Assembly (NCBI GenBank): GCA_903831455.1
Contig: CAIKXV010000296.1
Span: forward strand, 3,363 to 67,362
Source: an uncultured Pseudomonadota bacterium
GTDB taxonomy: Bacteria; Pseudomonadota; Gammaproteobacteria; Burkholderiales; CAIKXV01
DNA: 64,000 nucleotides
Reading direction: 5' to 3'
A model generated the notes under the pieces. It searched no databases and had not been told where the DNA came from. It saw nothing but the letters and a program-made list of their open reading frames with translations. Position numbers and translations under genes: made by a program. Shown here one piece after another: positions 2-58,793 of the stretch. The first letter of the stretch is position 1, and every line of letters starts with the position of its first letter.

Positions 2-3233
<3,232 letters not shown>

Positions 3234-23087: not shown

Positions 23088-23564
23088 TCAGTGTCCCGGG
23101 TTGGGGTTGTGTTCGGCCCAGCCCGTGGTCTTGGCACCTTCGGTGGCGATCAGCACGAAGGCCATGATGCAGTCCTCGGTGCCGGGATTGCGCCAGTTGT
23201 GGTTCGTCCCGCGCTGGATCACCACGTCACCGGGCTTGAGATGGACCGAGCCCTCGTCCATCTCCATGATCATCTCGCCGGCCAGGCAGATCGCATAGTC
23301 GACCGAGTCGGTGGCGTGCCAGCGAGGCACGTTGCCCGGCGCGTAGCGGCCGAAGCGGAATACCGATCCACCCGCCAGGCTGGTGCCCAGGTCCCAGGTG
23401 TTCGGATCGTCCTGCGTGCTCTCGGCCGGCAGCTTGCGGGTCGCCCACATCGGGATGTTGTCGAAGCCGGGACGCAGGTTGATCGGATCGATCAGGCTGT
23501 CCCACTGGATGCAGCTCTTGCCTTCCTTGTTGAAGCCGGTGACGACGCGACGGAATTGCTTCAT
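23088..23564 (-). CDS. cupin domain protein
   Basis: 158-aa ORF. Cupin-type motifs WHATDSVDYAICLAGEMIMEMDEG and LKPGDVVIQRGTNHNWRN. Confidence 0.75.
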   Translation of the reverse strand: MKQFRRVVTGFNKEGKSCIQWDSLIDPINLRPGFDNIPMWATRKLPAESTQDDPNTWDLGTSLAGGSVFRFGRYAPGNVPRWHATDSVDYAICLAGEMIMEMDEGSVHLKPGDVVIQRGTNHNWRNPGTEDCIMAFVLIATEGAKTTGWAEHNPNPGH

Positions 23565-23681: not shown

Positions 23682-24209
23682 TCAGGCGGTGAGTTGCTTG
23701 ACCAGCACGTCGAGGTGGCCGAGCGTGACGGCGCGCATCTCATCGGCACCGAGGTTGCTGATGGGATGCGGCAGCTCGATGTAGGGATGGCCCGGCATGC
23801 CGCGCGACCTGAACTGGAACACGCAGGCATTGCGGAACGCCTGGGTGATGATCACGGTGGCGGGGATGCCGCGACGTTCGAACTCCACGGTGTCGTGCAC
23901 ACTGCACAACGTGCACGACCCTCATCCACCGACGGCGGCCACCGCCAGATGCGCCTCCTGGGCGAGCTCGTCGATCAGCTGATCGGTGGCGGGCTTCGAG
24001 TAGTGTTCCTTGCTGCGGATGATCACCCGGGCCACGCCGTGGCGCTCCTTCAGCGCCGCGGCGATCGTCTCGAGGATCAGCGTGCCCTGCTCCTTGGTGT
24101 TGTCCACCATGGCCACGACCCTGCCGGCAAGGTCCATGGGTCGGGGCGCAAGGGGTATGGCCGGGCGGTTGCCTCCGGCAGACGGATCGATGAAGGGCAA
24201 GGGTTGCAT
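23682..24209 (-). CDS. UGSC-motif (seleno)protein candidate, 175 codons, with in-frame TGA (Sec) at 23922..23924
   Basis: ATG at 24209 preceded by AAGGAGG. Minus-strand reading is continuous across the TGA: ...AVAAVGG-U-GSCTLCSVHDTVEF... The track splits it into 23922..24500 and 23682..23909. The downstream piece has only a TTG start and no RBS. A stable hairpin follows the TGA directly. Confidence 0.7.
23892..23919 (-). promoter_or_regulatory. SECIS-like RNA hairpin immediately 3' of the in-frame UGA
   Basis: Minus strand UGA-GG-GUCGUGCAC-(GUUGUGCAGU)-GUGCACGAC. Perfect 9-bp stem with a 10-nt G/U-containing loop. The stem can extend by G-C pairs across a bulged A. Confidence 0.6.
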
Positions 24210-24237: not shown

Positions 24238-25263
24238 TCAGGCGCGGGGTACGCGATAGCGTCCATGGACCGCACGGCTGCCGCCGCTCCAGCCATGGCA
24301 GATCGCGGTGCAGGGGCCCCAGCCGCCGGCCACCACCAGCAGCAGGTCGTCGGGATGCTTGATCGCCGGCACGAAGCAGCCATCGTCGTCGGGGTCGACG
24401 GCGATCGGCAGCGCCAGCGCCCGCTCGCGTCGCCAGTTGCCGCCGCGCCGAAGGTCCCCGACCGTGCGTCCGGCGCGTTCGACCAGCCACCGGTGGACAT
24501 CGGTGCGGCTCATGCCCGCCTCGGCGCAGAGCGTCGCGTGCTGCGGACCCATCGCGACCACCATGTCCGACCGCGCGTGCATGTTCCATGACCCCAGCGC
24601 CGCCATCCCGTCGGCGATGCCGGTGAGCAGGCGTTCGGGATCCTGGCTCACGTCGTCGAAGTGCAGTCGCGGAGATTCGACCATCGCGCATGCGATCGTG
24701 TCCTCGTCGACGCGATGGCCCTGCGCGACGGCGAGCGTCTCCCAGGGGCTGCGCTCGACGTTCTCGGTGATGCAGGCCGTATAGCGCAGGGGCGAGCCGA
24801 AGATCGTGGCCGAGGCGACACCGGCCATGCCGCCGCCGAGGTTGAGCAGGATCAGCCGGATCGCGCGCCCGATCGACGCGTTGGCCCGGAAGCCGGGGCC
24901 GAAGCAGCCATTGCCGCCGTTCAGTCCGACGCGCGCGGCGTGCGGCCCGTTGACGATCATCAGCGGCGCGACGCCATGCATGGTGCCCTGGACGCCGTTG
25001 AGATTGAACGGTTCGAGCAGCATGAGGTCGAGCGCGGCGATGACGACCGGCAGGTGGTCGGGCCGGCAGCCGGCCATCAGCGCGTGCAGCGCGACGTCAC
25101 GCACGGTGGCGACGTTCATGGCCGGGGGTACCGCGCCGATCACGTCCTCGGGCAGGCGCCCCGCGGCCGCCAGCATCGGGGCGAGCCGGGCTTCGGTGGG
25201 CGTGACGACCGGCAATCCGTCCGACCACGGTTTTTCCAGAAAGAACTCGAACTCGTCGATCAT
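24238..25263 (-). CDS. uncharacterised protein, tandem paralog A (341 aa)
   Basis: ATG at 25263 preceded by AAGGAG. High GC3 coding signal. Conserved blocks WSDGLPVVTPT, AVPPAMNVATVRDVALHA, NLNGVQGTMHGVAPLMIVNGP, GPGFRANA.IGRAIRL, VVAGGWGP. I recognise no family. Confidence 0.8.
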   Translation of the reverse strand: MIDEFEFFLEKPWSDGLPVVTPTEARLAPMLAAAGRLPEDVIGAVPPAMNVATVRDVALHALMAGCRPDHLPVVIAALDLMLLEPFNLNGVQGTMHGVAPLMIVNGPHAARVGLNGGNGCFGPGFRANASIGRAIRLILLNLGGGMAGVASATIFGSPLRYTACITENVERSPWETLAVAQGHRVDEDTIACAMVESPRLHFDDVSQDPERLLTGIADGMAALGSWNMHARSDMVVAMGPQHATLCAEAGMSRTDVHRWLVERAGRTVGDLRRGGNWRRERALALPIAVDPDDDGCFVPAIKHPDDLLLVVAGGWGPCTAICHGWSGGSRAVHGRYRVPRA

Positions 25264-25282
25264 GCCCGGCCCCGCTCCTTTC

Positions 25283-26314
25283 TCAATCGACCCGGTAGCG
25301 GCCATGCACCGCACGGCTGCCACCGCCCCAGCCGTGCGCCACGGCGCTGACCGGCCCCCAGCCACCAGCGACGATCAGGTGGAGGTCCTGCGGGTCCTTG
25401 ATGACCGGCACGAACGCGTCGTTGCATGCCGGATCGACGCCGATGCGTCGCGCCCGCTCGTCGCGCCAGTTGCCGCCGCGGCGCAGGTCGCCCGCGGTCC
25501 GGCCCGCCTGCCGCACCAGCCATTCGTGCACGCGAGCGCGGTCCCAGCCGGCGCGTGCGCAGATCGTCGCCTGCTCGGGCCCCAGCACCACCACCATGTC
25601 CGAGCGCACGTGCATGTTCCAGCTGCTCATCGCAGCCATCGAGTCGGCGATGCCGGTGAGCAGGCGCTCGGGACCCTGGCTGACGTCGTCGTAGCAGAGA
25701 CGGGGCGCCTCGACCATCGCGCAGGTGATCACGTCCTCGTCGACGCCGTAGCCGCGCGAGACCGCGAGCGTCTCCCACGGGCTGCGCTCGATGTTCTCGG
25801 TCCAGCAGGCGGTGTAGCGCAGCGGCGAGGACAGCACCGTGGCCGAGGCGAGGCCGGGGATACCGCCGCCCAGGTTGAGCAGCAGCAGCCGGATCGCGCG
25901 GCCGATGGTGGCGTTGGCCCGGAAGCCCGGTCCCAGGCAGCCGTTGCCGCCATGCAGTCCGATGCGCGTCGCGTAGGGGCCGTTGACGATCATCAGCGGT
26001 GCGACGCCGTGCATGGTGCCCTGCACGCCGTTGAGGTTGAACGGTTCGCGCAGCATCAGTGCGAGGCCGCCCAGCACCACCGGCAGATACTCGGGCAGGC
26101 AGCCGGCCATCACCGCGTGCAGCGCCACGTCGCGCACGGTGGCGACGTTCATGGCCGGGGGAACCGCGCCGATCACCTCCGTCGGGTCGCGGCTCGTCCC
26201 GTGCAGCATCCAGTCGAGCCGCTCCTGCGTCGGCGTCACGACCGGCAGGCCGTCGCTCCACTCCTTCGCGAAGAAGAACTCGAACGGATCGAGTCCGTCC
26301 CCGGCGTCGGTCAT
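25283..26314 (-). CDS. uncharacterised protein, tandem paralog B (343 aa)
   Basis: ATG at 26314 forms an ATGA overlap with the stop of the upstream Bug gene. Colinear with paralog A over its full length. It occupies the lower third of spurious track ORF 25283..28033. Confidence 0.8.
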   Translation of the reverse strand: MTDAGDGLDPFEFFFAKEWSDGLPVVTPTQERLDWMLHGTSRDPTEVIGAVPPAMNVATVRDVALHAVMAGCLPEYLPVVLGGLALMLREPFNLNGVQGTMHGVAPLMIVNGPYATRIGLHGGNGCLGPGFRANATIGRAIRLLLLNLGGGIPGLASATVLSSPLRYTACWTENIERSPWETLAVSRGYGVDEDVITCAMVEAPRLCYDDVSQGPERLLTGIADSMAAMSSWNMHVRSDMVVVLGPEQATICARAGWDRARVHEWLVRQAGRTAGDLRRGGNWRDERARRIGVDPACNDAFVPVIKDPQDLHLIVAGGWGPVSAVAHGWGGGSRAVHGRYRVD

Positions 26315-27294
26315 TCGGCCTTGATCCCCGCGGCCTTCACCACGCGCGTGTAGCGTCCGATCTCGCCCTCGATGAACTTGCGGAAGTCGGCGGGTGAGTT
26401 GGCGAACGGCTCGGTGCCGAGCTTGACCAGGGCGGCCTGGTTCTTCGGATCGCCCACGGCGCGGGCGATCTCCTTCGCCAGGCGCTCGACGATCTCGCGC
26501 GGGGTGCCGGCCGGGGCGAGGAGCCCGTACCACTGCGTGACCTGGAAGTCCTTCAGAAGCTCCGCGATCGCAGGCACCTCGGGGATGGTGCGCTTGAGGC
26601 CGGTGGTGGCGATGATGCGCATCTTGCCTGCCTTGGCGAAGGGCACCACGGCCGGGCCGGTGCCGTAGAGCATGGTGGCCTCGCCCGAGAGCACCGCCAC
26701 CGCGGCCGGACCGTTGCCCTTGTAGGGCACGTGCAGGATGTTCACGCCCCCGAGCAGGTTGAGCAGCTCGCCCGCGAGGTGGGGCCCGCCCAGCAGGCCG
26801 CTGGAGGCGAACGAGAGTTCGCCGGGGCGTTTCTTCGCCAGCGCGATCAGGTCCTTGAGCGAGCGCACCGGCAGCGACGGATGCACCGTCAGGATGTAGT
26901 CCGAGGTGGCGGCGAGGCTGATCGGCGCGAGATCGCGCAGAGGATCGTAGGGGAGCTTCGGGTTGGCCGCCGGCAGGATGGCGATCGGGGCGACGTTGCC
27001 CAGCACCAGCGTGTGGCCGTCCGCGGGCGCCTTGGTGGCGAGTTCGGTTCCGATCTGGCCGCTGGCCCCGGGACGGGTGTCGATGACCAGCGGCTGGCCG
27101 AGCTGTTCGCCCAGTGCCTGCGCGACGATCCGACCGACCGCGTCGGTACCGCCCCCGGGCGGATAGGGAGAAATCATCCGGATCGGCTTGGCCGGCCATG
27201 CCGCCTGTGCGCTCGCGACGGCGGGCAGGGCGAGCAGGGCCGCGGCGGCGAGTCCGCTTGCGGCGAGCAACGGATTGCGGTTCATGGGGTTCAT
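26311..27294 (-). CDS. Bug-family (TctC-like) tripartite tricarboxylate transporter substrate-binding protein
   Basis: 327-aa ORF. Signal peptide ending ASAQAAWP. Typical Bug blocks PIRMISPYPPGGGTD..GR, V.N.PGA.G and HVPYKG. Confidence 0.85.
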   Translation of the reverse strand: MNPMNRNPLLAASGLAAAALLALPAVASAQAAWPAKPIRMISPYPPGGGTDAVGRIVAQALGEQLGQPLVIDTRPGASGQIGTELATKAPADGHTLVLGNVAPIAILPAANPKLPYDPLRDLAPISLAATSDYILTVHPSLPVRSLKDLIALAKKRPGELSFASSGLLGGPHLAGELLNLLGGVNILHVPYKGNGPAAVAVLSGEATMLYGTGPAVVPFAKAGKMRIIATTGLKRTIPEVPAIAELLKDFQVTQWYGLLAPAGTPREIVERLAKEIARAVGDPKNQAALVKLGTEPFANSPADFRKFIEGEIGRYTRVVKAAGIKAE

Positions 27295-27411: not shown

Positions 27412-28083
27412 TCAGCCCTCGACGTGGTTGGCCGGATCGGCGCTGAATCGCTGGAAGGCAGGGCGCTGGACGATCCGGGAATACCAGCGCTCGATGTTCG
27501 GGAAGGACGGGCGCACCGGCTCGAGCAGTACCCAGCGGTGCACGCGGATGCCGATCGGGATGTCGCCGAAACTGAACGCCTCGCCGGCCATGTAGGCGGT
27601 ACGCGCGAGCTGGTCCTCGACGATCCGCAGCTTGCGCGCGAATGCGTCGCGCGCGGCGGCGAGCGTCGACGGATTGCGCTGCTCCAGCGGCAGCCGGACC
27701 CGCTCCATCACCATGTCGTGCTGGGGCGGCAGCAGTTCGTTGTTCTCGAAATCCTGCCAGCGCGACGCCGAGGCGAAGGTGCGCAGATCGTCGCCGTAGA
27801 GGGCCTGCGGCGCGTAGCGCATGGCGAGATAGCGGCAGATCGCGTTCGACTCCCAGAGCACGAAGCCCTCGTCGTCGATGGTCGGGATGCGTCCGTTCGG
27901 GTTGAGTGCCCGGTACTCGGGCGTGTCGACGACACCGAACGGGCGATTGCCCTTCGCGACATGGCCCCCGGGCCCCATCACCGCGCTGGCCGGGATGAGT
28001 TCGAAGTCCACCCCGCACTCGGCGAGTGTCCACAGCACCTTCTGCGTACGGTTGGAGGTAAGCCTGCCCCAGAGCTTCAGCAT
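27412..28083 (-). CDS. glutathione S-transferase family protein
   Basis: ATG at 28083 (MLKLWGRLTSNRTQKVLW...). N-terminal thioredoxin-like GST fold with RIPTIDDEGFVLWESNAICRYL, plus a helical C-terminal domain. Confidence 0.8.
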   Translation of the reverse strand: MLKLWGRLTSNRTQKVLWTLAECGVDFELIPASAVMGPGGHVAKGNRPFGVVDTPEYRALNPNGRIPTIDDEGFVLWESNAICRYLAMRYAPQALYGDDLRTFASASRWQDFENNELLPPQHDMVMERVRLPLEQRNPSTLAAARDAFARKLRIVEDQLARTAYMAGEAFSFGDIPIGIRVHRWVLLEPVRPSFPNIERWYSRIVQRPAFQRFSADPANHVEG

Positions 28084-28117: not shown

Positions 28118-29062
28118 TCAGGCGACCGTGCGGCCGTGCGCGACCACGGCCGCGGCGACCCGTTGCGCGTCGGCGATGGCATCGCCGAGGCGCCCGCCAT
28201 ACCCGCTTCGCACCGCGCCCACGGCAAACACGCCGGCGCGGGTGGTTGCGCCGCTGGCGTCGGTGAGGATCGCCCCCGCGCTATCGGTCGGCAGTCCGGC
28301 CCAGCCCGACCGCGGTTCGAGTCCGATGCAGGGGAACACCGCATCGACGGCCAGCGTGCGTCGGGTGCCGTCGGAACCCTGCAGCACGATCGCCTGCAGC
28401 GTCTGCGCGCCCTCGATGCCGACGACCTGATGCTCCGGGTGCAGCGCGTAGCGGTCGGGACTGTCGATCCGCGCGCGGTCGAAAAGGGTGCGCAGCCGCG
28501 CCCGCGCGCGGGGCTCTCGACCCCGCAGCACCAGATGCACGCGGCTTGCATGGCGCGCGAGCACCATCGCCTCCTGCAGTGCGCTGTCACCACCGCCCAC
28601 GACGGCGACCTCGCGGCCGCCGAGCAACGGCGCGTCGCAGTCGGCACACCACGACAGGCCGCGCCCCTCGAAGCGATCGAGACCGGCGATCGGCAGTCGG
28701 CGGCGCGCGGCTCCGGTCGCAACGATCACGCAGCGTGCGGCATGGACGGCCTCGGGGGTGGCGACCTCCCATCCCTCCCGGAGGGACCGGAGCGACACCG
28801 CCGCCTCAGGCAGGCGCACGACGCCGGCGTCCATCGCCTCGCTGGCGAGCAGCGTCGCGACATCGATGCCCGAGCCCTCGAGGTCGGCGCCCTCGAGGTC
28901 GGTGCCGGCGTCGACGAGTTCGTTCACGCTGGCGACCAGGCCGCCGTACAACTCCGGCTCCAGGGACAGCACGGAGAGCCCCGCGCGCGCGCAGGCGAGC
29001 GCAGCGGCCAGCCCGGCGATACCCTCGCCGGCGACGATCACATCATGCTGCTCCATGGACAT
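28118..29062 (-). CDS. thioredoxin-reductase-like FAD/NAD(P)-dependent disulfide oxidoreductase
   Basis: ATG at 29062 preceded by GGAG. DVIVAGEGIAGLAAA (FAD GxGxxG), redox CxxC in SWCADCDAP (compare TrxB CATCD), VAVVGGGDSALQEA (NAD(P)H site), GVFAVGAV. Confidence 0.8.
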   Translation of the reverse strand: MSMEQHDVIVAGEGIAGLAAALACARAGLSVLSLEPELYGGLVASVNELVDAGTDLEGADLEGSGIDVATLLASEAMDAGVVRLPEAAVSLRSLREGWEVATPEAVHAARCVIVATGAARRRLPIAGLDRFEGRGLSWCADCDAPLLGGREVAVVGGGDSALQEAMVLARHASRVHLVLRGREPRARARLRTLFDRARIDSPDRYALHPEHQVVGIEGAQTLQAIVLQGSDGTRRTLAVDAVFPCIGLEPRSGWAGLPTDSAGAILTDASGATTRAGVFAVGAVRSGYGGRLGDAIADAQRVAAAVVAHGRTVA

Positions 29063-29070
29063 GTCTCCGC

Positions 29071-30030
29071 CTACCCGTGAACGCGATGGGGCACCGGCTC
29101 CCCGGCGAAATGCGCACGCAGGCTCTCGAGCCAGCAGGCTTGCCGGTGGGCCCGGATCTCGCGGGTCGATGAACCGAGGTGCGGCACGAGCATCACCTGC
29201 TCCATCGCGCGCAGCGCGGCCGGAACCCGCGGCTCGTCGGCGAACACTTCCAGCCCGGCGCCGGCGATGCGGCCCCGCGCGAGCGCGTCGATCAGCGCCG
29301 GCTCGTCCACCACCGCCCCGCGGCTCACGTTGACCAGGTACCCCGAGGGCCCCAGCGCCTCCAGCACCCGCGCGTCGATCATGCCGCGCGTCTGCGCCGT
29401 CGACGCGCAGGCGACGACCAGGCAATCGGCGCGGGTCGCGAGATCGAGCAGCCGGGGGACGTAGGTGCCCGGGGCGTCCGGCTTGTCGCGCGGCCCGTGC
29501 CATTCGATCCGAAGGCCGAAGGCCGCCGCGCGGCGCGCCACCGCGCGGCCGATGGCGCCCATGCCGACGATGCCGCAGGTCTTCCCCCGCAGGTCGGTGG
29601 ACAGCGCGAAGGGTCCGGCCTCCCAGCGGCCTTCGCGCACGAAGCGATCGGCTTCGCACAGGCGGCGCAGGGTTCCCAGCAGCAGGCCCAGCGCGACGTC
29701 GGCGACCGCCTCCTCCGTCCAGTCGGGCGTGTTGGTGACCACGATGCTTCGCGCCTGCGCCGCGGCGAGATCCAGCGTGCCATGGCTCTGTCCGAAGCAG
29801 GCGATGATCTCGAGCGCGGGCAGGTCGTGCAGGTCATCGGCGCGGAACCCGCGCACGCCGGTGGTCACCAGCCCGCGTACACGTCGCAGCGTGGAGGGGT
29901 CGGCCGTCGCGGCGCCGCAGCCAGGCCAGCGGCGGTGGACCGTGTACTCGTGGGCGAGCGCGGCGAGGGCGGGCGCATGGATGGGCGCGATCGCCAGCAG
30001 TGCGGGGGACGGCGGGGCGTCCACGCTCAT
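29071..30030 (-). CDS. D-isomer-specific 2-hydroxyacid dehydrogenase family protein
   Basis: ATG at 30030 forms an ATGA overlap with the upstream stop. GIVGMGAIGRAVARR (NAD GxGxxG), LVNVSRGAVVDE, AGLEVFADEP, PHLGSST. Confidence 0.8.
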   Translation of the reverse strand: MSVDAPPSPALLAIAPIHAPALAALAHEYTVHRRWPGCGAATADPSTLRRVRGLVTTGVRGFRADDLHDLPALEIIACFGQSHGTLDLAAAQARSIVVTNTPDWTEEAVADVALGLLLGTLRRLCEADRFVREGRWEAGPFALSTDLRGKTCGIVGMGAIGRAVARRAAAFGLRIEWHGPRDKPDAPGTYVPRLLDLATRADCLVVACASTAQTRGMIDARVLEALGPSGYLVNVSRGAVVDEPALIDALARGRIAGAGLEVFADEPRVPAALRAMEQVMLVPHLGSSTREIRAHRQACWLESLRAHFAGEPVPHRVHG

Positions 30031-31040
30031 CGGCCAAGGGGTTCGCGCAACAGCGCCATCGCGTTGCCGCCGAGGATGCGGTCGCGGTCGCTCGCGGACA
30101 GACCGTCCACCGCGGCAAGGCGGCCGAGCGGGTCGGTCTCGGCCATGTCGAAGGGCGCATCGGTGCCGATCATCACGCGATCGGCACCGACCCTGTCGAT
30201 CAGGAAGGCGAGCGATCGGCTGTCGTGGGTGAGCGAGTCGAAGTGAAAGCGACGCAGCTGCGACTCGGGCGAGTGGGCGGTATGCGCGCGCGCCTCGGGG
30301 CGCACGCGGTAGCCGTGGTCGAGGCGGCCGTACTGGTAGGGCAGGTGGCCGCCGCCGTGTGCGAGGATCATGTCCAGACCGGGCAGGCGGTCGAGCGTGC
30401 CGCCGAGCATCAGGTGCACGGCCATCAGCGCGGTGTCGAACGGCAGCCCGTGCGTGTTTCCGAGGTAGTAGGCGCACAGGTCGGTGGGCAGCTGGCCTGC
30501 GATGTAGGGGTGCGCGAACACGCTGACCTTCAGTTCGGCGGCACGCCGGAGCACCGGCTCGAAGCGTGCATCGGAGAGCAGCGTGCCCTTCACGCGGCAG
30601 CCCAGTTCCACCGAGCGGAACCCCAGGTCGCGCACGATCCGCTCGAGCTCGGCGATGGCCGCGTCGGCGTCCTGCATCGGCAGCGTGCCCATGCCGCGCA
30701 GGCGCGCGGGGGCCGCGTCGACCATCCGGGCGATGCCGTCGTTGAGCAGGCTCGCGGCGGCGATGCCGTCGTGGCCGTCCAGCCAGTAGAAGAACACCAC
30801 CGGGGTGACCGAGATCACCGAGATGTCGATGCCCTTGCGATCCATCGACTCGAGCTTGGCCTCGACGTCGAAGAACTCCGGGTGCAGCGGCGACCCGTGG
30901 CCGTCGTCGCGCACCAGCGCGATGTCGTTGCCCTCGCCCCGCACCGACATGCCGTAGGCCCGCGGCTGGGCGCGGATGGCCTCGACCATGTTGCGCGGGA
31001 GCACGTGGCTGTGCACGTCGATCACGGGGGTGCGGCTCAT
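30027..31040 (-). CDS. amidohydrolase_2 (ACMSD-like) family metal-dependent hydrolase/decarboxylase
   Basis: 337-aa ORF. VIDVHSHVLP metal site, FAHP, ILAHGGG, MIGTDAPFD. Confidence 0.8.
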   Translation of the reverse strand: MSRTPVIDVHSHVLPRNMVEAIRAQPRAYGMSVRGEGNDIALVRDDGHGSPLHPEFFDVEAKLESMDRKGIDISVISVTPVVFFYWLDGHDGIAAASLLNDGIARMVDAAPARLRGMGTLPMQDADAAIAELERIVRDLGFRSVELGCRVKGTLLSDARFEPVLRRAAELKVSVFAHPYIAGQLPTDLCAYYLGNTHGLPFDTALMAVHLMLGGTLDRLPGLDMILAHGGGHLPYQYGRLDHGYRVRPEARAHTAHSPESQLRRFHFDSLTHDSRSLAFLIDRVGADRVMIGTDAPFDMAETDPLGRLAAVDGLSASDRDRILGGNAMALLREPLGR

Positions 31041-37768: not shown

Positions 37769-39013
37769 TCACGCGCGGACCAGCCCCAGCAGATGCGCGA
37801 GGTCCTTGAAGAAGATGCGTACCTGCGCCATGGGTTTGCGCCGGGTGAGCTTCTTGTTCATGTAGGACTCCCAGGTGAGCTTCTGGACGTCCGGGTCGCG
37901 GCAGATCGATACGAAGCGCTCGCGGCGTCGGTCGGAGCTGTACCAGAAGCGCTGCATGATGCCCAGTACCCAGAACACCCGACCGTGGGCCTTCATGAAG
38001 CGGCGCCGAGCGGCGCCCAGCGCCGAGGCGCGTCCGGTCTCGAGGAAAACCTCCACCGCGTCGGCGGCCATGCGCCCACCGGTCATCGCGTAGTAGATGC
38101 CCTCGCCCGACGCCGGGGCCACCACGCCCGCCGCATCGCCGGCGAGCACCACGTCGCGACCGTTGTCCCAGCGCGTCATCGGGCGCATGGGGATGGGCGC
38201 GCCCTCCCGGCGAACGGTGCGCGAGGAGCTCAGGCCGGCGGAGCGTCGCAGCTCGGTGGTCGCATGGCGCAGCGAAAACCCGCGCTGGGCGGTTCCCACG
38301 CCGACGCTGGTGGTCGCCCCGTGGGGAAACACCCAGCCGTAGAAGTCGGGCGAGAGCCGGCCCTGGTACCAGACATCGCACCGCGCCGGATCGAAGCGGG
38401 AACCCGCGGGGGACGGTTCCGGCGAGGTGACGATCTCGTGGTAGGCATAGACGAAGGGTGCGGGCGCGACGTCGGGCAACGCGTCGCGGGCAACCGCCGA
38501 CTGCGCGCCGTCGGCACCGATCACCGCGCGCGCGCGAACCGAGCACGACGTCCCGGGACCGTCGGGTGCGTCGGCGGCGCGCGATCGCCAGTAGACGACG
38601 GCAGTGCCGTCGGCATCGCGGCCGATCCGGTCGAAGGTGCCGTTGACCCGGTGCGCACCGTTCGCGCGCGCCCGTTCGCGCAGCCACTCGTCGAAGTGTT
38701 CGCGGTCGACCATGCCGACGTAGCCGTCCTCGATCGGCATGTCCACCTCGCGCTCGCTCGGCGAGACCATGCGCGCCGAGGTGACCTTGGCCACGAGTTG
38801 CGAGTCGGGCACCTCGAATTCGCGGATCAGCGCGGGAGGTACCGCGCCTCCGCAGGGCTTGATCCGCCCGGCGCGATCCAGTAGCAGCACCGAGCGGCCG
38901 CGCCGGGCGAGATCGTCGGCCGCGGTGGCGCCGGCGGGGCCGCCGCCGACGATCACGACGTCGTACTGGAGGAGCGTGGAGGCTGCGTTCGGTGTGGCGA
39001 GGGGGGTCTGCAT
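37769..39013 (-). CDS. bchP: geranylgeranyl diphosphate / geranylgeranyl-bacteriochlorophyll reductase
   Basis: ATG at 39013. YDVVIVGGGPAGATAA, RIKPCGGAVP, MVDREHFDEWLR. Located after bchG and the PucC-like gene, as in other photosynthesis gene clusters. Confidence 0.9.
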   Translation of the reverse strand: MQTPLATPNAASTLLQYDVVIVGGGPAGATAADDLARRGRSVLLLDRAGRIKPCGGAVPPALIREFEVPDSQLVAKVTSARMVSPSEREVDMPIEDGYVGMVDREHFDEWLRERARANGAHRVNGTFDRIGRDADGTAVVYWRSRAADAPDGPGTSCSVRARAVIGADGAQSAVARDALPDVAPAPFVYAYHEIVTSPEPSPAGSRFDPARCDVWYQGRLSPDFYGWVFPHGATTSVGVGTAQRGFSLRHATTELRRSAGLSSSRTVRREGAPIPMRPMTRWDNGRDVVLAGDAAGVVAPASGEGIYYAMTGGRMAADAVEVFLETGRASALGAARRRFMKAHGRVFWVLGIMQRFWYSSDRRRERFVSICRDPDVQKLTWESYMNKKLTRRKPMAQVRIFFKDLAHLLGLVRA

Positions 39014-39113
39014 GGCGATGCTCCCGGAGGGGGGGCCGACGGCGGTCGAGGGCGGGTGGTCGCGATTCTCGGAGCGGGATGCGCGCAGGGGAGTCGAGCC
39101 GAAGGCGCGGTCT

Positions 39114-40490
39114 TCAGCGTCCGCCGAGGCCGGCGGCGTAGTGCTCTGGAGACACCGGAAGCGCGCGCGAGCCGGTGTCCGGCACATGCGCGCGACCGAT
39201 GCGAAGGGCGAGGAGGGCCGAGACCACGAACAGCACGGCCTCCAGCGCGAATACCGTGGTGTAGCCGACGGCAGCCGAGCCGCTCGCGTGGCGGAACACG
39301 TCGCTCAGCACGGCGCCGACGAAACCGCCGGCACCGAAGGCGATCGCCTGCGCGGCTCCCCACAGCCCCATGCGCGTGCCCTCGCGATTGCGTACGCCCT
39401 CGCCCGCGAGCGCCATCATCGAGCCGATCGCGGCGACGGCGAAGGCGCCGTTGCCGGCGCCGAGCAGGAAGACGTTGATGACGAGGGGCCAGTCCTCGCC
39501 CGCGTGGCCGCCGACCGCAAGCCCTGCCAGGGCCAGGGCCGACGCGATGCAGCCGCCCACCGTCCATCCGGAGAGCGTGCCCAGCCTGCGGCCGCGCACG
39601 CCCCGACCGGCGAGCAGCGCGACGAGCATCATCCCGCACAGCACCCCCGCGTTCTGCTGGCCGGCGAGGCGGGTCGACTGTCCGGGCGTGTAGCCGAACA
39701 CGGTGCCGGCGAACGGCTCGAGGATGAGGTCCTGGGCGCTGAAAGCCAGCATCGACATGAAGACGAAGACCGTGAAGCGGCGGGCGCGGTGGTCGGACCA
39801 CACCTCGGCCAGGGCTTCGCGGAATGGCACCTGCGTGCGCGTGGGCGCCGCGCGGGTGCCGGCGCGCTCGACGCCGGCGACCGCGAGCAGGGTCACCGTG
39901 AAGGCGATGGCGGCGACCGTGGCGGCGACGCCCACGAGTCGCGCGGGGGAGAACGGGTCGAGGAAGTGCCCGGCGGTGGCGGCGGTGATGATGAAGCCGA
40001 CGATCATCATCATCCACACGATGGTGGCGGCGGCACCGCGGCGGGCGGGTGCCACCTCGCGTGCAAGCAGGGTGAGCAGCGCGGTCCCGGAGGCGCCCAC
40101 GCCGACGCCGATGAGCGTGAAGGCCAGCGCGGCCAGCGCGATGCCCGCCCAGAGTTCGCTGGCCATCCAGGCGGTGGCCAGCGCCGCGAGCGTACCGCCC
40201 GCGGCGAGCACCCCCATGCCGCCGACGATCCACGGGGTGCGTCGACCGCCGACGTCGGATCCGTAGCCCAGGCGTGGCCGCAGCATCTGGATCGCGTAGT
40301 GCAGTCCGACCAGCGCGCCGGGCAGGAGCGCGGGCAGCGCGTACTCCACCACCATCACCCGGTTCATCGTCGAGGTGGTGAGCACGACGATCGCACCGAG
40401 CGCAGTCTGCACCAGGCCGAGCCGCACGATGCCAAGCCAGCCGAGGCCGTGGGGACCGTCGTGGATCGGGGCGGGAGTGTCGTCGCGCAC
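39114..40490 (-). CDS. PucC/BCD-family MFS protein (Bch2-like)
   Basis: 458-aa 12-TM ORF. LVQTALGAIVVLTTSTMNRVMVVE and LRPRLGYGSD blocks shared with LhaA/PucC. Lies between bchG and bchP. Confidence 0.85.
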   Translation of the reverse strand: MRDDTPAPIHDGPHGLGWLGIVRLGLVQTALGAIVVLTTSTMNRVMVVEYALPALLPGALVGLHYAIQMLRPRLGYGSDVGGRRTPWIVGGMGVLAAGGTLAALATAWMASELWAGIALAALAFTLIGVGVGASGTALLTLLAREVAPARRGAAATIVWMMMIVGFIITAATAGHFLDPFSPARLVGVAATVAAIAFTVTLLAVAGVERAGTRAAPTRTQVPFREALAEVWSDHRARRFTVFVFMSMLAFSAQDLILEPFAGTVFGYTPGQSTRLAGQQNAGVLCGMMLVALLAGRGVRGRRLGTLSGWTVGGCIASALALAGLAVGGHAGEDWPLVINVFLLGAGNGAFAVAAIGSMMALAGEGVRNREGTRMGLWGAAQAIAFGAGGFVGAVLSDVFRHASGSAAVGYTTVFALEAVLFVVSALLALRIGRAHVPDTGSRALPVSPEHYAAGLGGR

Positions 40491-40497
40491 GGGGGAC

Positions 40498-41379
40498 TCA
40501 GCCGATGCTGGACTGGCCGAGGGCGAAGGCGCTCACGAGCATGCCCAGCACGTAGAGGCTCACGCCGGTGGCGTTGTACCAGGGAGCGCGGGCGCGGGGA
40601 TCGGCCAGCAGCCGGGCCATCAGCGCCAGCTGGGCGGCGAGCAGCGCGGCGACGACGGTCGCGTGACCCGGGTGTCCCCACAGCGCCAGCAGCCCGACGA
40701 CGGCCACCTGCGGCAGCGCCATCGCCCAGCAGGCCACGCGGGCGGCGCGCTCGGGACCGAGGCGAACCGGCAGCGAGCCCACGCCGGTCTGCCGGTCGCC
40801 CTCGACGGACTTGAAGTCGTTGAGCGTCATGATGCCGTGCGCTCCGAGGCTGTAGAGCCCGGCGATCGCGAACGTCCGCAGGTCGGGCACCGCGCCGCCC
40901 AGCATGACGGCGGCGCCCGTCACCCACGGCAGGCCTTCGTAGGACACCGCGACGGCGCTGTTGCCCCACCAGCCGTTCTGCTTGAGCCGTACCGGCGGTG
41001 CGCTGTAGAGCCAGGCGAGGACGAGTCCGATCGCTGCCGCGGCCAGCACGACCGGCCCCAGCGCGGCGGCCAGTGCAATCGACAGCCCAGTCCATGCGAG
41101 CGCGATATACAGGCCCCAGCGCCCGGGGATGCGACCCGAGGGAATCGGCCGTTGCGGCTCGTTGATCGCGTCGACGTGGCGGTCGTACCAGTCGTTGACG
41201 GCCTGGCTGGTGGCGCATACGAGGGGTCCGGCCAGCAGGATGCCGGCGAGCACCATCGGCCACTGGCCGGCCGCCGGGAGGCCGCTGGCCACCGCACCGC
41301 AGGCGAAAGCCCACATCGGCGGAAACCAGGTCACCGGTTTCAGCAGTTCGAGGACGGCCTTGGGCGCAGGGGTCGACAT
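40498..41379 (-). CDS. bchG: bacteriochlorophyll synthase (UbiA prenyltransferase family)
   Basis: 293-aa ORF. LLKPVTWFPPMWAF, NDWYDRHVDAINEPQRPIPSG, NDFKSVEGD. Confidence 0.92.
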   Translation of the reverse strand: MSTPAPKAVLELLKPVTWFPPMWAFACGAVASGLPAAGQWPMVLAGILLAGPLVCATSQAVNDWYDRHVDAINEPQRPIPSGRIPGRWGLYIALAWTGLSIALAAALGPVVLAAAAIGLVLAWLYSAPPVRLKQNGWWGNSAVAVSYEGLPWVTGAAVMLGGAVPDLRTFAIAGLYSLGAHGIMTLNDFKSVEGDRQTGVGSLPVRLGPERAARVACWAMALPQVAVVGLLALWGHPGHATVVAALLAAQLALMARLLADPRARAPWYNATGVSLYVLGMLVSAFALGQSSIG

Positions 41380-41408
41380 GACCCCACGTTACTGGCGGGC
41401 TGCGCGCG

Positions 41409-41426
41409 CGTCAACCTGTCCTGACA
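41409..41426 (-). promoter_or_regulatory. near-consensus PpsR-type site upstream of bchG (TGT-N12-ACG on the minus strand)
   Basis: Minus strand TGTCAGGACAGGTTGACG, 30-47 nt upstream of the bchG ATG. One mismatch to TGT-N12-ACA. Overlaps an 8-bp hairpin palindrome. Confidence 0.3.
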
Positions 41427-41442
41427 CCGCATGTGTCAGGAA

Positions 41443-42876
41443 TCAGGGGGTCTCCGCCTCCGGTTCGGGTCCGAGATCGCCGAGTCCGTAGCGCCGGAGC
41501 TTGACGTACAGGCTCTGCCGGCTGAGGCCGAGCATTTCGGCGGCGGAGGCGCGGTTGTCCCGGGACAGTTCCAGCGCGGCCTCGATGCACAGCCGCTCGA
41601 TCACGTCGGTGGTCTCGCGGACCAGTTCCTTGAGGGATACGCGGCCGACGAGTTCGGTGAGCTGCTCGACCGAACGAGGCAGGACGCGGCCGGCACGGCC
41701 TTCGGCGGAGGGGCGACGGCTCACGTTGCGGATCGAGAACCCGAGGCAGGGCGGATCGCTGCGCAGCGCGGAGACCGCGGAGATCTCCACGTCGGTGGTC
41801 CCGCCGTATTCACCGCGCAAGGCGGTGGAGAACAGGCGGACCGTGCCGTGCTGCCGCAGGTTGGCGAGCAGCGCGTTGAGATCCACGCCCGGCCGCCCCA
41901 GCCAGCGATCGATCGACTGGCCTCGAACCTGCTCCTCGGCGGCGAGCTGGGTGTAGTCGACGAACGCCCGGTTGGCGGCCAGCACGGCACCATCGGGGTC
42001 GGTGAGCACGAAACCGTCAGGCAGCCCTGCGATCACCTCGGCCAGCCGTTGCTCCTGTCCGGGTGCCAGCTGCGGCCCGGCCACCCCGGCCACCGGGCTC
42101 AGGCGCACGAGGAACATCGAGGCGTCGTCCTGGCGGAACATCGAGGCGACGACCCTGAACTCCGACTTGCCGTCGGCCAGCCGCACCAGGATTTCCTCGG
42201 GGTTCGCACCGGCGCGCACCGCGCCGAGCATGCGCTGCAGGGCCTGCGTACCCGGGGAGTCGAATCCGTCCGGGAAGGCGCGGCCAGCCAGCTTGCGCAC
42301 GTGCTCTCCGAGCAGCCGGGCCGCGGCTGGATTCGCCTCGACCACGCGCTGGTTGGCCGCGTCGACGATCAGCACCGCCTCCGAGGCCATCTGGAACAGC
42401 AGCCGGTAGCGGGCTTCGGCGTGGCGAAGTCGCAGGTAGTCGCGTTCCATCGACTGCTGGACGTCGAGCAGTCGCTGCTGGAGCGCGGCGACCGGCCGCA
42501 GGTCGCGCCCGACCGCGACGATGCGGCCCCGGGTGCCGATCGGCACCGCCGAGTAGAGCATCGCCACTTCGCCCGACGGCGTGGGATGGTTGACCTGCCG
42601 CCAGCGGGAGGGCACGTGGCCCGATGCGTCGCGCAGCAAATCCTCGATCTTGCGGCGGCTCTCGACGGTGACCGTGTCGAGCCAGGGTTTGCCGATCCAC
42701 CCGTCGAGGCTTTCCGCGGGTAGCGAGTCGCTGCCGATGGCGAGGTCGCGGATCACGCCCCCGGCATCGATGACGAGGGTGACGTCCCCGGTGGCCGCGA
42801 GCAGACGCGAGGCTGATTCCGCGTCCACTTCGGCCAGCGACCGGGAGGGAGACCTGAACTGCCGTGCTGCTTCCAC
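41443..42876 (-). CDS. ppsR: photosynthesis gene repressor PpsR/CrtJ (PAS domains plus C-terminal Fis-type HTH)
   Basis: 477-aa ORF with several PAS-like segments. C-terminal NRASAAEMLGLSRQSLYVKLRRYGL. Lies next to ppaA and bchG. Confidence 0.9.
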   Translation of the reverse strand: MEAARQFRSPSRSLAEVDAESASRLLAATGDVTLVIDAGGVIRDLAIGSDSLPAESLDGWIGKPWLDTVTVESRRKIEDLLRDASGHVPSRWRQVNHPTPSGEVAMLYSAVPIGTRGRIVAVGRDLRPVAALQQRLLDVQQSMERDYLRLRHAEARYRLLFQMASEAVLIVDAANQRVVEANPAAARLLGEHVRKLAGRAFPDGFDSPGTQALQRMLGAVRAGANPEEILVRLADGKSEFRVVASMFRQDDASMFLVRLSPVAGVAGPQLAPGQEQRLAEVIAGLPDGFVLTDPDGAVLAANRAFVDYTQLAAEEQVRGQSIDRWLGRPGVDLNALLANLRQHGTVRLFSTALRGEYGGTTDVEISAVSALRSDPPCLGFSIRNVSRRPSAEGRAGRVLPRSVEQLTELVGRVSLKELVRETTDVIERLCIEAALELSRDNRASAAEMLGLSRQSLYVKLRRYGLGDLGPEPEAETP

Positions 42877-42908
42877 TGCTGCCGGTCTCCCTGCGAAATG
42901 GGTCGTCG

Positions 42909-43781
42909 CTAATGCTGCGCGGCTAGCAGGCCTACCATCGCCTGCCCTTGCTGGACCGCGTGCAAGGCATCGTGGGCCGTCGCGTCGGCACCGACACGCG
43001 CGACCCAGTCCGGGTTCTGGGTAAACAGGGGGCCACCCACCAGCACGCCGATGTGGCGATTGCGTGACACCCTGCGGATCGCATGGATCGTACGCGCAAG
43101 AGTGTCAAGGTGGCGTTCCGCGGAAAGTGACAAGCCCACGAGATCGAACCACTGGTCCCTGACGTTGTCCACAGGTTCGGTGCCCGCCTCGGAAATCTCG
43201 TCGTGCACGGTCCAGCCGGCACGACGGAAGAATTCGGCAACGATGGACAGGCCGAAGCCGTGCTGCTCGCCGGGCGTGAGCCGCAGCAGAACCTTGCGCG
43301 GTTCGTCCGGGCTCCGCGTCGGGGGGCCGCCGACGCCGCGAAGTTCGTGCATCACGGCCTGCAGACGCCACAGCCCGATCGTCACGTCGGTGAACGAGCA
43401 GCGATCCTCCTCCCAGGCGCCGCCGGCGCCCCGGGCAGCCGGCGCCAGCAGTTCGAGGTAGGCCGCTTCCAGGGACAGCCCGTCGGCGATCAGGGCGCGC
43501 ACGAACTCCAGAGCGGCGTCCGGGTCCTGGCCGAGCGCGAGCTGGGTCAGGCGGTCGATGTCCGCCTGCCGCGGATGCGACGGCCGGGGCGACAGGCCCG
43601 CCGGATCGATGGCATGGGCCAGCATCAGGCGCGGGATGATCTCGCCCTCGATCGTGCGCAGCAGCCCGGGCGTGACCCGGGCCGCTGGGCGCAAAGGCTC
43701 GTCGTCGGAGCCTCCGGGACGCTCGCGTCCGGGTAGCGCCGTCGGTGGCGAATCCCTGTCGTCATCGGACATTCCAGCCAT
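42909..43781 (-). CDS. ppaA: cobalamin-binding antirepressor PpaA/AerR
   Basis: 290-aa ORF. C-terminal B12-binding-domain-like region (EQHGFGL...DLVGLSLS...VLVGG). Divergent from bchF and upstream of ppsR. Confidence 0.8.
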   Translation of the reverse strand: MAGMSDDDRDSPPTALPGRERPGGSDDEPLRPAARVTPGLLRTIEGEIIPRLMLAHAIDPAGLSPRPSHPRQADIDRLTQLALGQDPDAALEFVRALIADGLSLEAAYLELLAPAARGAGGAWEEDRCSFTDVTIGLWRLQAVMHELRGVGGPPTRSPDEPRKVLLRLTPGEQHGFGLSIVAEFFRRAGWTVHDEISEAGTEPVDNVRDQWFDLVGLSLSAERHLDTLARTIHAIRRVSRNRHIGVLVGGPLFTQNPDWVARVGADATAHDALHAVQQGQAMVGLLAAQH

Positions 43782-44015
43782 ACCACCCCCGTTCCTCGCA
43801 CCGGCGCGGACACTGCACCCCGCCGGGGTCGAACACCCGCAACCGCGGGAACCCCTATCCGACGCAGTACGCGGTCCGGTACCGAGGCCCCGAGGGGCGG
43901 ATCGATCCGGACGTCTTGTTAGGGAGGCGGCAATGACCGAGCGACGTCGCCCGCAGGAAAGGAGGCCCCGTGCCGGACAGCCGAGGGAACCTCACCCACC
44001 CCTTCACGATACGCC

Positions 44016-44032
44016 TGTCGCGCGGGAATACA
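44016..44032. promoter_or_regulatory. PpsR-like palindrome with non-canonical spacing (TGT-N11-ACA)
   Basis: TGTCGCGCGGGAATACA in the ppaA/bchF divergent region. Spacing is 11 nt, not 12. Confidence 0.2.
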
Positions 44033-44069
44033 ACTACCCGCCGCGCATCAGACACCTCCGCCGCCGAAT

Positions 44070-44087
44070 TGTCAATCGGCATGGACG
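44070..44087. promoter_or_regulatory. near-consensus PpsR-type site upstream of bchF (TGT-N12-ACG)
   Basis: TGTCAATCGGCATGGACG lies 74-91 nt upstream of the proposed bchF GTG. A TTGACA hexamer follows at 44098..44103. Confidence 0.3.
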
Positions 44088-44123
44088 TTAACTCAGGTTG
44101 ACAGTTCGGGGAGCGGGGTCTAG

Positions 44124-46016
<1,893 letters not shown>

Positions 46017-46026
46017 GAGTCCCCGC

Positions 46027-47611
46027 ATGCAACTGACGCTCTGGACCTACGAAGGACCTCCGCACGTCGGGGCCATGCGCGTGGCCACCTCGATGCGCGA
46101 GGTGCACTACGTGCTGCACGCCCCCCAGGGCGATACCTACGCCGACCTGCTGTTCACGATGATCGAGCGCCAGGACCGGCGGCCCCCGGTTACCTACACC
46201 ACCTTCCAGGCGCGCGATCTCGGCGGCAGCACGGCCGAGATGGTGAAGGACGCCGTGGCCGAAGCCTGGGAGCGCCATCGCCCCCAGGCGATGCTGGTGG
46301 GCGAGTCCTGCACGGCCGAACTGCTGCAGGACCAGGCCGGCACGCTGGGCCAGACGCTGGGCCTGCCCATCCCGGTGGTGCCGCTCGAACTGCCCGCCTA
46401 CTCGAAGAAGGAATGCTGGGGCGCGGCCGAAACGTTCTACCAGCTCACGCGCGCAGTGCTCGCCGACCGCGTCCCGCCGCCCGGGACGGTTCGCCCCACG
46501 CGTGGCGAGGGCGTGCGCCCGCGCGCGAACCTGCTGGGCGCCACCGCGCTGGGCTTTCGCTGTCGCGACGACGTGGTGGAGATCACGCGGCTGCTCGCGG
46601 ACCTGGGTGTCGACGTGAACGTCGTGGCGCCGCTGGGCGCAAGCCCCGAGGACCTGCGCCGCATCCCCGAGGCCGACTTCAACGTCGATCTCTACCCCGA
46701 GGTGTCGCGCACGCTCTGCGGCTGGCTGCAGCGCGCCTTCGGCATGCCGGCGACCCGCACGATCCCGATGGGCGTCAATGGCACCCGGGCCTTCGTGGCC
46801 GAGGTGGCCACGCTGGCCGGGCTGTCGGCCGAGTCCTTCCTCGAACGCGAGCGGCCGGGCGAGGCCGGACTGGACGCCTCGCGCTCGAGACTGGCGTGGT
46901 ACTCGCGCTCGGTGGACTCCACCTACCTCACCGGCAAGCGGGTGTTCATCTTCGCCGACGCCACCCACGCGGTGGCCGCAGCCCGCATCGCGGCGAGCGA
47001 GATGGGGTTCACGGTGGTGGGACTGGGCACGTTCTCGCGCGAATTCGCGCGCGAGGTGCGCGAGGCGGCGCGCGAACACGGCGTCGAGCCGCTGATCACC
47101 GACGATTACCTTCAGGTCGAGCGCGCGATCGCCGAGGCGGCGCCGGAACTGGTGCTGGGCACCCAGATGGAGCGCCACATCGCCAAGCGGCTGGGCATCG
47201 CCTGCGCGGTGATTTCGTCTCCCATCCACGTGCAGGACGTGCCCGCCCGCTACAGCCCGGTGTACGGCTTCGAAGGCGCGAACGTGCTCTTCGACAGCTG
47301 GGTGCATCCGCTGGTGATGGGTCTGGAAGAGCACCTGCTGCAGATGTTCCGCGAGGACTTCGAGTTCAACGACCGCGCGCCCGCCTCGCACCTGCCGGTG
47401 CCCGCGCGTGCCCCGCAGCCTGCCGACGAGGCCTTGGCGCCGCCCGGCGCGCCGGAGCCCGCTGCGGCGCCGACCGCTGCGCCGGCGTGGTCATCGGACG
47501 GTGAACTCGAGCTTCGCAAGATTCCGTTCTTCGTGCGCGGCAAGGCGCGCCGCAACACCGAGCGCTTCGCCCAGGAGCGAGGCATCGCCACGATCACCGT
47601 CGAGACCCTCT

Positions 47612-47640
<29 letters not shown>
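46027..47640 (+). CDS. bchB: light-independent protochlorophyllide reductase subunit B
   Basis: 537-aa [34 protein letters not shown]-terminal [18 protein letters not shown]. Confidence 0.95.
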
Positions 47641-52415
<4,775 letters not shown>

Positions 52416-52422
52416 GCGCGCG

Positions 52423-54629: not shown

Positions 54630-54767
54630 CGTCGTCCACCCCTTTCCCGTACATCCACCGCCAGCCTCGCCCCAACCCCGCCCCCAACCCTCTTCCGCCG
54701 CGCACGGGCGATGCCGTCGCCGCGCCATCGAGCATCACCGGCATCCGCCGGAACAAGGAGACCCGCC

Positions 54768-56206: not shown

Positions 56207-56208
56207 CC

Positions 56209-56709: not shown

Positions 56710-56844
56710 GGGATCCGGCTGCACGGACACGAGCACGGGGTTCGGAAGGGAACACGGGTTACGCGGCGTCGGCCATGGCCGACGCGACGATTCGACAGGG
56801 AGCTCCCGGGGCCGCGTGCCCCGATCTGAGGCAGGAGAAGCGAC

Positions 56845-57912: not shown

Positions 57913-57952
57913 GCGTGGCACTCCGCCGACCGCGGGGCGACGGAATCCGCCG

Positions 57953-58792: not shown

Positions 58793-58793
58793 C

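Follow-up and report, generated by a model that had tools for sequence, protein, structure and literature searches.

Tandem genes beside a UGSC selenoprotein gene belong to a large family without a recognised domain that is linked to thiol and selenol redox modules

We analysed a 64,000-nucleotide stretch of DNA (hereafter the window; contig CAIKXV010000296.1, positions 3,363 to 67,362, of assembly GCA_903831455.1) from an uncultured bacterium assigned to the Burkholderiales. On its minus strand, two adjacent paralogous genes, here termed famA and famB, lie directly upstream of a gene of the UGSC selenoprotein family, a bona fide member of that family which is the partner of the proteins studied here and not one of them. 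The core of the locus comprises the following features:

famA, 25283..26314, minus strand: open reading frame (ORF) with a translation of 343 aa, A-type paralogue
famB, 24238..25263, minus strand: ORF with a translation of 341 aa, B-type paralogue
UGSC-family selenoprotein gene, 23682..24209, minus strand: 175 codons, matching PF24696 and NF041046, with a ribosome-binding site upstream
Selenocysteine (Sec) codon TGA of the UGSC gene, 23922..23924, minus strand: in frame within GG-U-GSC
Hairpin resembling a selenocysteine insertion sequence (SECIS), 23892..23919, minus strand: begins 5 nt after the UGA, 10-bp stem in RNAfold

A first-pass annotation made from the sequence alone had described famA and famB as adjacent, colinear minus-strand genes whose products are, by eye, two-thirds to three-quarters identical. 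Translation and an end-to-end BLASTP alignment confirmed this description, with 248 identities over 337 positions (74%), 82% positives and gaps at 2 positions, and all the motif blocks that had been quoted as common to both proteins are visible in the alignment. The predicted start of famB is placed at 25263 in preference to that of a longer GTG-initiated ORF from 25365, because an AAGGAG ribosome-binding site lies 5' of the former and homologues begin there. Both N-termini are acidic, and the most hydrophobic 19-residue stretch of the pair (Kyte-Doolittle 1.6-1.7) lies within a helix-loop region of the globular fold, which is modelled with confidence. The absence of signal peptides and transmembrane segments, also proposed at first pass, was judged likely from hydropathy and the AlphaFold2 (AF2) model alone, with no dedicated predictor. 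A search of the window for further paralogues of famA and famB found none.

The UGSC gene of the window scores 161.9 bits against PF24696 (E 2e-47; cut-off 25) and 130.3 bits against NF041046 (cut-off 125), and an in-frame TGA at the Sec site is kept in 60 of 62 homologous loci. The 60-nt segment from the UGA on folds with -25.6 kcal/mol (RNAfold), and the GUGCAC...GUGCAC core of the hairpin is conserved at the nucleotide level in the homologous loci, with a mean z of -1.6. Rfam gave no match for the hairpin, and neither a tRNA-Sec nor Rfam elements were found in the window. We regard 23682..24209 as a genuine UGSC selenoprotein gene on the strength of the two family models, the conserved TGA and the hairpin; the earlier placement of the pair directly upstream of a selenoprotein gene is thereby upheld, all three genes belonging to the same operon.

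The linkage between the family and UGSC was surveyed by tblastn in 80 loci kept out of 215 returned by a genome scan, nearly all of them from metagenome-assembled genomes (MAGs) of Burkholderiales/Betaproteobacteria and a few from MAGs labelled Chloroflexota, Dehalococcoidia, Nitrospinota or Rhodospirillaceae. Thirteen of the 80 contigs were too short to judge the presence of UGSC. In 55 of the 67 informative loci a UGSC gene lies within 300 bp of the family gene, and in 5 others it is found farther off in the same locus. The association extends to distant bacteria and haloarchaea. Methylomirabilota relatives (~40% identical) display the order MoxR-type AAA ATPase, VWA_CoxE, DUF3047, family, then Sec-UGSC, and cultured carriers were found by tblastn in plasmids and chromids. 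Among these, Variovorax sp. SRS16 has the order trxB-TctC-SDR-family-UGSC (its 169-aa "hypothetical" protein being UGSC by Pfam), Roseovarius sp. THAF8 LysR-family-UGSC-trxB, Arthrobacter sp. ERGS1:01 trxB-trxA-family-UGSC and two Natrinema species UGSC-family-DUF6282; Paracoccus ferrooxidans carries a Sec-UGSC gene, split in the annotation, followed by the family gene, with selB nearby, and the family gene is also present on replicons of Paracoccus versutus. Solute-binding proteins (TctC, DctP, TAXI, SBP_bac_5), MFS transporters and LysR regulators recur as neighbours of the module. The co-occurrence with UGSC genes that the first-pass annotation proposed to look for was thus recovered well beyond the window, and it is very likely that the two families act together.

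Gene fusions were counted among the 150 best representatives of the family at 50% identity. Thirty are UGSC-family fusions, for many of which the called start lies immediately past the Sec codon; the reverse order, family-UGSC, accounts for 3, which end at the Sec codon, and 6 are family-family double fusions whose halves are both intact and share 28-41% identity. Other members are fused to a thioredoxin-fold AhpC/TSA/Redoxin domain with a CxxC motif (P0178 and P0184 by Pfam, P0175 and P0222 by eye), to a ferredoxin-thioredoxin reductase catalytic chain (FeThRed_B; P0171) or to a weak NifU-like C-terminal CxxC element (P0160 and P0170), and in P0189 a complete thioredoxin reductase is fused to the family protein, a Sec-UGSC gene immediately preceding the gene for this fusion. 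Vibrio europaeus and Sporomusa termitida encode proteins of ~561 and ~574 aa, respectively, that contain the family domain; the N-terminal half of the Sporomusa protein, the only part of the two that was scanned, gave a weak UGSC match. Every identifiable fusion partner is a thiol or selenol redox module, and this is the strongest clue to the function of the family.

Several further observations concern the fused forms and UGSC itself. The linker of the thioredoxin-fold fusions P0175, P0178, P0184 and P0222 contains a conserved PGCG[SA][KR] motif resembling the G-U-G-S of UGSC, which may be a remnant or a mimic of the UGSC active-site loop. The Arthrobacter UGSC protein (L095 5015-5830, 271 aa) has a C-terminal extension with CSDC similar to the NifU-like CxxC tails of P0160 and P0170, so that one small redox element appears on either partner. 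The long proteins of S. termitida (L091) and V. europaeus (L093) are encoded next to a gene pair for aconitase X and DUF126, an arrangement seen in both of these unrelated organisms. A search of UGSC homologues for further fusion partners returned only N-terminal fragments of ~96-115 aa (most of 96), cut at the Sec codon. Gene callers systematically split or cut UGSC at the Sec UGA into ~96-aa and 62-80-aa fragments (L081-L083, L086-L088, L094), and fused UGSC-family proteins get called from just 3' of the Sec codon, so that public annotation under-reports both UGSC and its fusions.

The family is large. A word-indexed search gave at least 6538 clusters at 90% identity, and an exhaustive HMMER search of 1.84 billion representatives gave 5193 clusters at 50% identity with E<=1e-3, of which 1281 at E<=1e-30. 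All the source names read "hypothetical protein", RefSeq annotations of cultured strains included. Conservation was counted over a 75-sequence alignment (A2; identity range 33-85%) and residues are numbered as in famA. Invariant or nearly invariant are D21, G22, P24, T29, M69-A70-G71-C72, P78, G112-P113, G128, N134, G138-R139, C170, E173, P179-W180 and G317-G318; R139 is found in 75 of the 75 sequences, D21, N134 and E173 in 74 each, C72 and W180 in 73 and C170 in 71. An arginine-rich motif, GPGxRANATIGRAxRL, is characteristic of the family, and the cysteine of the GNGC motif (Cys126) is kept in 30 of the 75 members only. Every conserved residue is retained by famA and by famB, and the seven counted singly above are kept by both halves of the double fusions. 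We infer that C72 and C170, together with R132, N134, R139, R142 and E173, are candidate active-site residues. Copies assigned to distant lineages, namely Dehalococcoidia/Chloroflexota (L077, L079), Nitrospinota (L059), Rhodospirillaceae (L012) and 'Streptomyces' bins (L013/L016), are 67-78% identical to famA, and such high identity between MAGs of distant phyla suggests horizontal transfer, mis-binning or a constraint of unusual strength.

The statement that no known domain is recognisable in the two proteins has stood up to profile and structure searches. Pfam and NCBIfam gave no match to famA even at E<=1 and, for famB, chance-level helix-turn-helix and sorting-motif matches only; 75 diverse members scanned against the same two collections had no family in common, and single-sequence and profile searches of PDB sequences returned no match. 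An AlphaFold model built on a 26-sequence alignment was unusable (predicted local distance difference test score, pLDDT, 60), whereas the AF2 model of famA obtained with the 75-sequence alignment reached a pLDDT of 95.4 and a predicted template modelling score of 0.93. When this model was compared by Foldseek with 350,542 PDB chains, none matched at E<=1e-3. Highest-ranked was the alpha subunit of a class I fumarate hydratase, the two-subunit enzyme of M. jannaschii (7xky_A; E 4e-3, TM-score 0.28, root-mean-square deviation 16 Å, 10% identity), followed by class I enzymes of Leishmania and, lower down, by Toblerone-fold amide hydrolases and PurM-like proteins, all with TM-scores below 0.3. The assignment to a well-characterised enzyme family that would have spoken against a novel family was therefore obtained from neither profile nor Foldseek searches.

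In the window the pair and its UGSC gene are embedded in a longer minus-strand gene series, which in transcriptional order consists of Amidohydro_2, D-2-hydroxyacid dehydrogenase, a thioredoxin reductase (TrxR)-like gene, glutathione S-transferase (GST), TctC, famA, famB, UGSC and cupin. The genes surrounding the core are:

Amidohydro_2 gene, 30027..31040, minus strand: first gene of the series
D-2-hydroxyacid dehydrogenase gene, 29071..30030, minus strand: second gene of the series
Low-Mr thioredoxin-reductase-like flavoprotein gene, 28118..29062, minus strand: Pyr_redox_2, E 1.4e-30, CADC at residue 139
Glutathione S-transferase-like gene, 27412..28083, minus strand: GST_N and GST_C domains
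TctC/Bug periplasmic solute-binding protein gene, 26311..27294, minus strand: PF03401, E 3e-61, translationally coupled to famA
Cupin_2 protein gene, 23088..23564, minus strand: PF07883, E 1e-9, 117 bp downstream of UGSC

The start codon of famA and the stop codon of the TctC gene overlap in the sequence ATGA, and throughout the TctC-A-B-UGSC core the genes are joined by translational coupling or have ribosome-binding sites, with very short gaps and no convincing promoter or terminator within the core. As raw-ORF counting is confounded by antisense ORFs in DNA of 70% GC, neighbourhoods were counted from defined proteins. The order GST-TctC-A-B-UGSC is conserved in 25 loci, the 11 closest of which additionally have the TrxR-like gene, and most Burkholderiales loci have TctC as the direct upstream neighbour of the family gene; cupin homologues occur in a few related loci only, so that the cupin is a loose neighbour. 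The TrxR-like protein of the window, with its Pyr_redox_2 fold and a CxxC near residue 135, has the hallmarks of a low-Mr thioredoxin reductase, and its CADC aligns with the CATC/CAVC of family-linked trxB genes elsewhere; overall identity to these genes is only 28-37%. Farther afield, all three haloarchaeal plasmid loci examined (L090, L096, L097) have a DUF6282 protein gene next to or near the family gene, with amidohydrolase, CoA-transferase and CoA-ester lyase genes also nearby. In the archaeon Natrinema zhouii (L090) and the actinobacterium Arthrobacter sp. ERGS1:01 (L095) the family-UGSC module has a gene for phosphosulfolactate synthase no more than a few kb away, a possible hint of sulfonate metabolism.

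The first-pass annotation had taken famA and famB for two diverged copies retained in tandem rather than for a recent redundant duplication, and the comparison of related loci agrees with this reading. The A and B sequences form separate orthologous lineages, 84-88% identical to famA and 79-84% identical to famB in the closest MAGs, and both occur together in at least 32 loci (27 in AB and 5 in BA order). The ratio of nonsynonymous to synonymous divergence (dN/dS) between orthologues is 0.16-0.20 for both copies, indicating purifying selection. These low ratios, the separation of the lineages and the retention of all conserved residues argue that the duplication is old and maintained. The further expectation that the family would always occur as a pair did not hold, since 26 loci with A or B only (13 A-like and 13 B-like singletons) were found against the 32 with both. 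Synonymous divergence (dS) between A and B within a genome is 0.46-0.61 and that between orthologues of different MAGs 0.52-0.68 (window, L001, L009, L043); despite this no larger dS, the amino-acid divergence of A from B is roughly twice that between orthologues, a pattern that could reflect compression of dS at ~90% GC of third codon positions or some gene conversion. In three loci a further, very divergent family member (32-34% identical) lies upstream of the A/B pair at a distance of a few kb (L015 861-1826, L021 3052-4023, L027 3689-4660).

Taken with the linkage and fusion data, the conservation pattern suggests that the family is probably the terminal catalytic subunit of a thiol/selenol-dependent reductase. 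In the scheme that we propose, NAD(P)H would reduce the FAD and then the CxxC of the TrxR-like protein (28118..29062 in the window), which would in turn reduce the Sec96-Cys99 selenenylsulfide of UGSC. UGSC would then either reduce a disulfide or sulfenate on the family protein, for which C72 and C170 are the candidates, or attack the bound substrate directly. The substrate, small and anionic, would be bound by the conserved arginines and reduced on the family protein; it would probably be a small organic acid imported via the co-encoded TctC-type binding protein. In the lineage of the window an A/B heterodimer would probably be served by one UGSC, and in single-copy lineages the family protein would act as a homodimer. 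The module as seen in adjacency and fusions, the conservation pattern and the lack of a known homologue are direct observations; the way in which electrons pass, the part played by the cysteines in catalysis, the kind of substrate and the assembly of A with B are deductions.

A number of points weigh against this interpretation. A strict Cys72-Cys170 redox pair is not universal, since in some members, P0145 and the double fusions among them, another residue stands in place of C170 or the cysteine lies one position off. UGSC is absent from 7 of the 67 informative loci despite adequate flanks, a Haladaptatus locus has the family gene with no adjacent UGSC, and conservation of the TrxR-like gene does not reach beyond the window's closest relatives. 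Catalysis is deduced rather than read from homology, since no fold or sequence relation to a known reductase was found, and no substrate can be named because the neighbouring catabolic genes differ between lineages. Reviews of 2022 and 2026 describe UGSC as functionally uncharacterised, and the literature holds no biochemical datum for either family (2026: PMC13188914).

Other functions were weighed against that of a reductase subunit. The family protein might not be an enzyme at all, serving UGSC instead as a scaffold, as a maturation factor or as a protein on which it acts, for instance one regulated through its disulfide state; no catalytic motif of a known enzyme class is recognised in it and its consistent partners are redox carriers only. 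We consider this improbable in view of the very strong conservation (67-78% identity across phyla in one subfamily), of an invariant polar cluster that includes three arginines and of the position of the gene within LysR-regulated operons with solute-binding proteins, dehydrogenases and CoA-transferases; moreover, fusion to alternative reductant modules is a pattern typical of terminal reductases such as Msr-Trx. Still less probable is an Fe-S hydro-lyase distantly related to class I fumarate hydratase, whose cluster or cysteines would be maintained by the redox partners. The M. jannaschii and Leishmania enzymes that head the Foldseek list and the aconitase X genes adjoining the fused forms in Vibrio and Sporomusa would fit such a relationship; the structural match is, however, not significant, Pfam Fumerase does not match, and the family lacks the three-cysteine cluster motif, having two conserved cysteines only (C72 and C170) where hydro-lyases of this type use three as cluster ligands. 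A closer parallel is offered by the Stickland-type reductases, UGSC being in that case a free-standing GrdB/PrdB Sec domain and the family a GrdE/PrdA-like substrate-activating subunit, perhaps pyruvoyl-bearing through self-cleavage at GNGC, with the Sec attacking carbon and cleaving a C-N, C-S or C-O bond beside a carboxylate. Common to both are the U-x-x-C motif (Sec-x-x-Cys in UGSC as in GrdB/GrdF/GrdH/PrdB, models TIGR01917, TIGR01918 and TIGR04483), a multi-subunit organisation acting on small carboxylates, for which binding proteins are co-encoded here, and the order of the family-UGSC fusions, which resembles the layout of GrdB with its C-terminal Sec domain. Grd and Prd systems are recycled by the thioredoxin system or a dithiol. 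The UGSC protein of the window weakly matches four of the corresponding models, TIGR01917 (E 2.8e-4, residues 71-154 against model positions 321-399), NF040795, NF040794 and TIGR01918 (E 3e-4 to 7e-3 over the four), and a second UGSC protein reaches E 0.02 against the PrdB model. These scores are nevertheless far under the cut-offs (19.9 against 602 bits, 15.4 against 65.45) and were obtained with only 1-2 of 8 diverse UGSC proteins; the idea that UGSC is a clear GrdB/PrdB homologue was accordingly downgraded to a weak lead. The 340-aa family itself matches no Grd/Prd model in Pfam or NCBIfam and has no detectable similarity to GrdB, GrdE or PrdA, the operon has no GrdA, GrdC or GrdD homologue, and the hosts, which are aerobic or phototrophic Burkholderiales, do not ferment amino acids. 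Self-cleavage at GNGC, and with it a pyruvoyl group, was rejected as unsupported, the family lacking a conserved cleavage cysteine (Cys126 in 30 of 75). A sequence search of the PDB yielded no structure of PrdB or GrdB, and the PrdH/PrdA paper presents AlphaFold models only. We hold the Stickland-type alternative to be unlikely, if somewhat less so than a non-enzymatic role.

The quaternary arrangement is less settled than the reductase assignment. The first-pass annotation had proposed an alpha/beta-like hetero-oligomer. The existence of distinct A and B lineages, the single UGSC gene per pair and the family-family fusions speak in its favour, the last two making a two-module (hetero)dimer plausible; single copies are, on the other hand, equally common, and two loci (L070 and L073) each carry two family-UGSC units, which counts against the hetero-oligomer. 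On balance we see the chances of an A/B heteromer as about even. What could replace it is a pair of isozymes, famA and famB forming separate homo-oligomers with different substrate preferences and one common UGSC reductant. Single-copy family and UGSC loci are about as frequent as pairs, the family-UGSC unit may be doubled as in the two loci just cited, a third locus has four tandem copies (L078 4946-9132, three 51-56% and one 69% identical to famA), and with the full set of conserved residues in both copies neither looks like a non-catalytic partner. Such isozymes would not readily explain why a tight A-B tandem with a single downstream UGSC gene has been kept in at least 32 loci, in AB and BA orders alike, nor why fusions with two intact halves exist, which argue for a functional two-module unit. 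We therefore treat the isozymes as possible but rather doubtful, and the earlier proposal as half sustained: the old, maintained duplication stands and the obligate pairing does not.

Returning to the reductase reading, its nearest architectural parallels are thioredoxin-dependent reductases such as the Trx-MsrA/MsrB fusions, PAPS reductase and ArsC, in which a constant cysteine domain is likewise served by interchangeable CxxC/UxxC carriers and by TrxR. The likeness is one of architecture only, as the family resembles none of these enzymes in sequence or fold.

Elsewhere in the window, positions 37769..61422 hold a bacteriochlorophyll/carotenoid photosynthesis gene cluster, with Pfam matches to PucC-like, BchG (UbiA), a PAS+HTH_8 regulator, BchB, BchH, BchL, BchM, an AcsF-like rubrerythrin-family cyclase, CrtI-like and CrtB proteins; on account of this cluster the host MAG is probably an aerobic anoxygenic phototrophic member of the Burkholderiales. 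At the left end (89..3233) the N-termini of ORFs resemble dnaN (partial) and gyrB, both named by eye, which suggests that this end adjoins the chromosomal replication origin.

UGSC-containing proteins are known from Hyphomonas neptunium and from metagenomes (PMC1976440), and since 2007-2008 UGSC has been listed as one of the commonest selenoproteins of prokaryotes in aquatic metagenomes, being the top family in several non-marine Global Ocean Sampling (GOS) samples (PMC2398784). In their 2008 paper Zhang and Gladyshev reported UGSC fused to a conserved domain, 'Unknown_1' (PMC2398784). As UGSC fusions are frequent in the family studied here, 'Unknown_1' is probably this family. The partner family, its size, the link to TrxR and the tandem A/B form are not described in the selenoprotein papers examined that mention UGSC.

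The present results give UGSC a biochemical context, that of a near-obligate partner belonging to a huge and strongly conserved family with neither a Pfam or NCBIfam model nor a solved homologue, and this partner family repeatedly recruits reductant modules of the thioredoxin type. They also bear on annotation, as UGSC is systematically cut at the Sec codon by gene callers and its partner is called "hypothetical protein" everywhere. Cultured carriers (Paracoccus, Variovorax sp. SRS16, Roseovarius sp. THAF8, Arthrobacter sp. ERGS1:01 and Natrinema) make the function of UGSC directly testable. We tentatively raise, as a realistic though not the most likely outcome, that the module may represent a new class of reductase, dependent on selenium or cysteine and without a solved relative of its fold, in which the UGSC selenol would act directly on a substrate bound to the family protein. 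If true, this would amount to a Stickland-like reductive bond cleavage of a small organic acid, carried out by haloarchaea and by aerobic bacteria of fresh water, soil and the sea.

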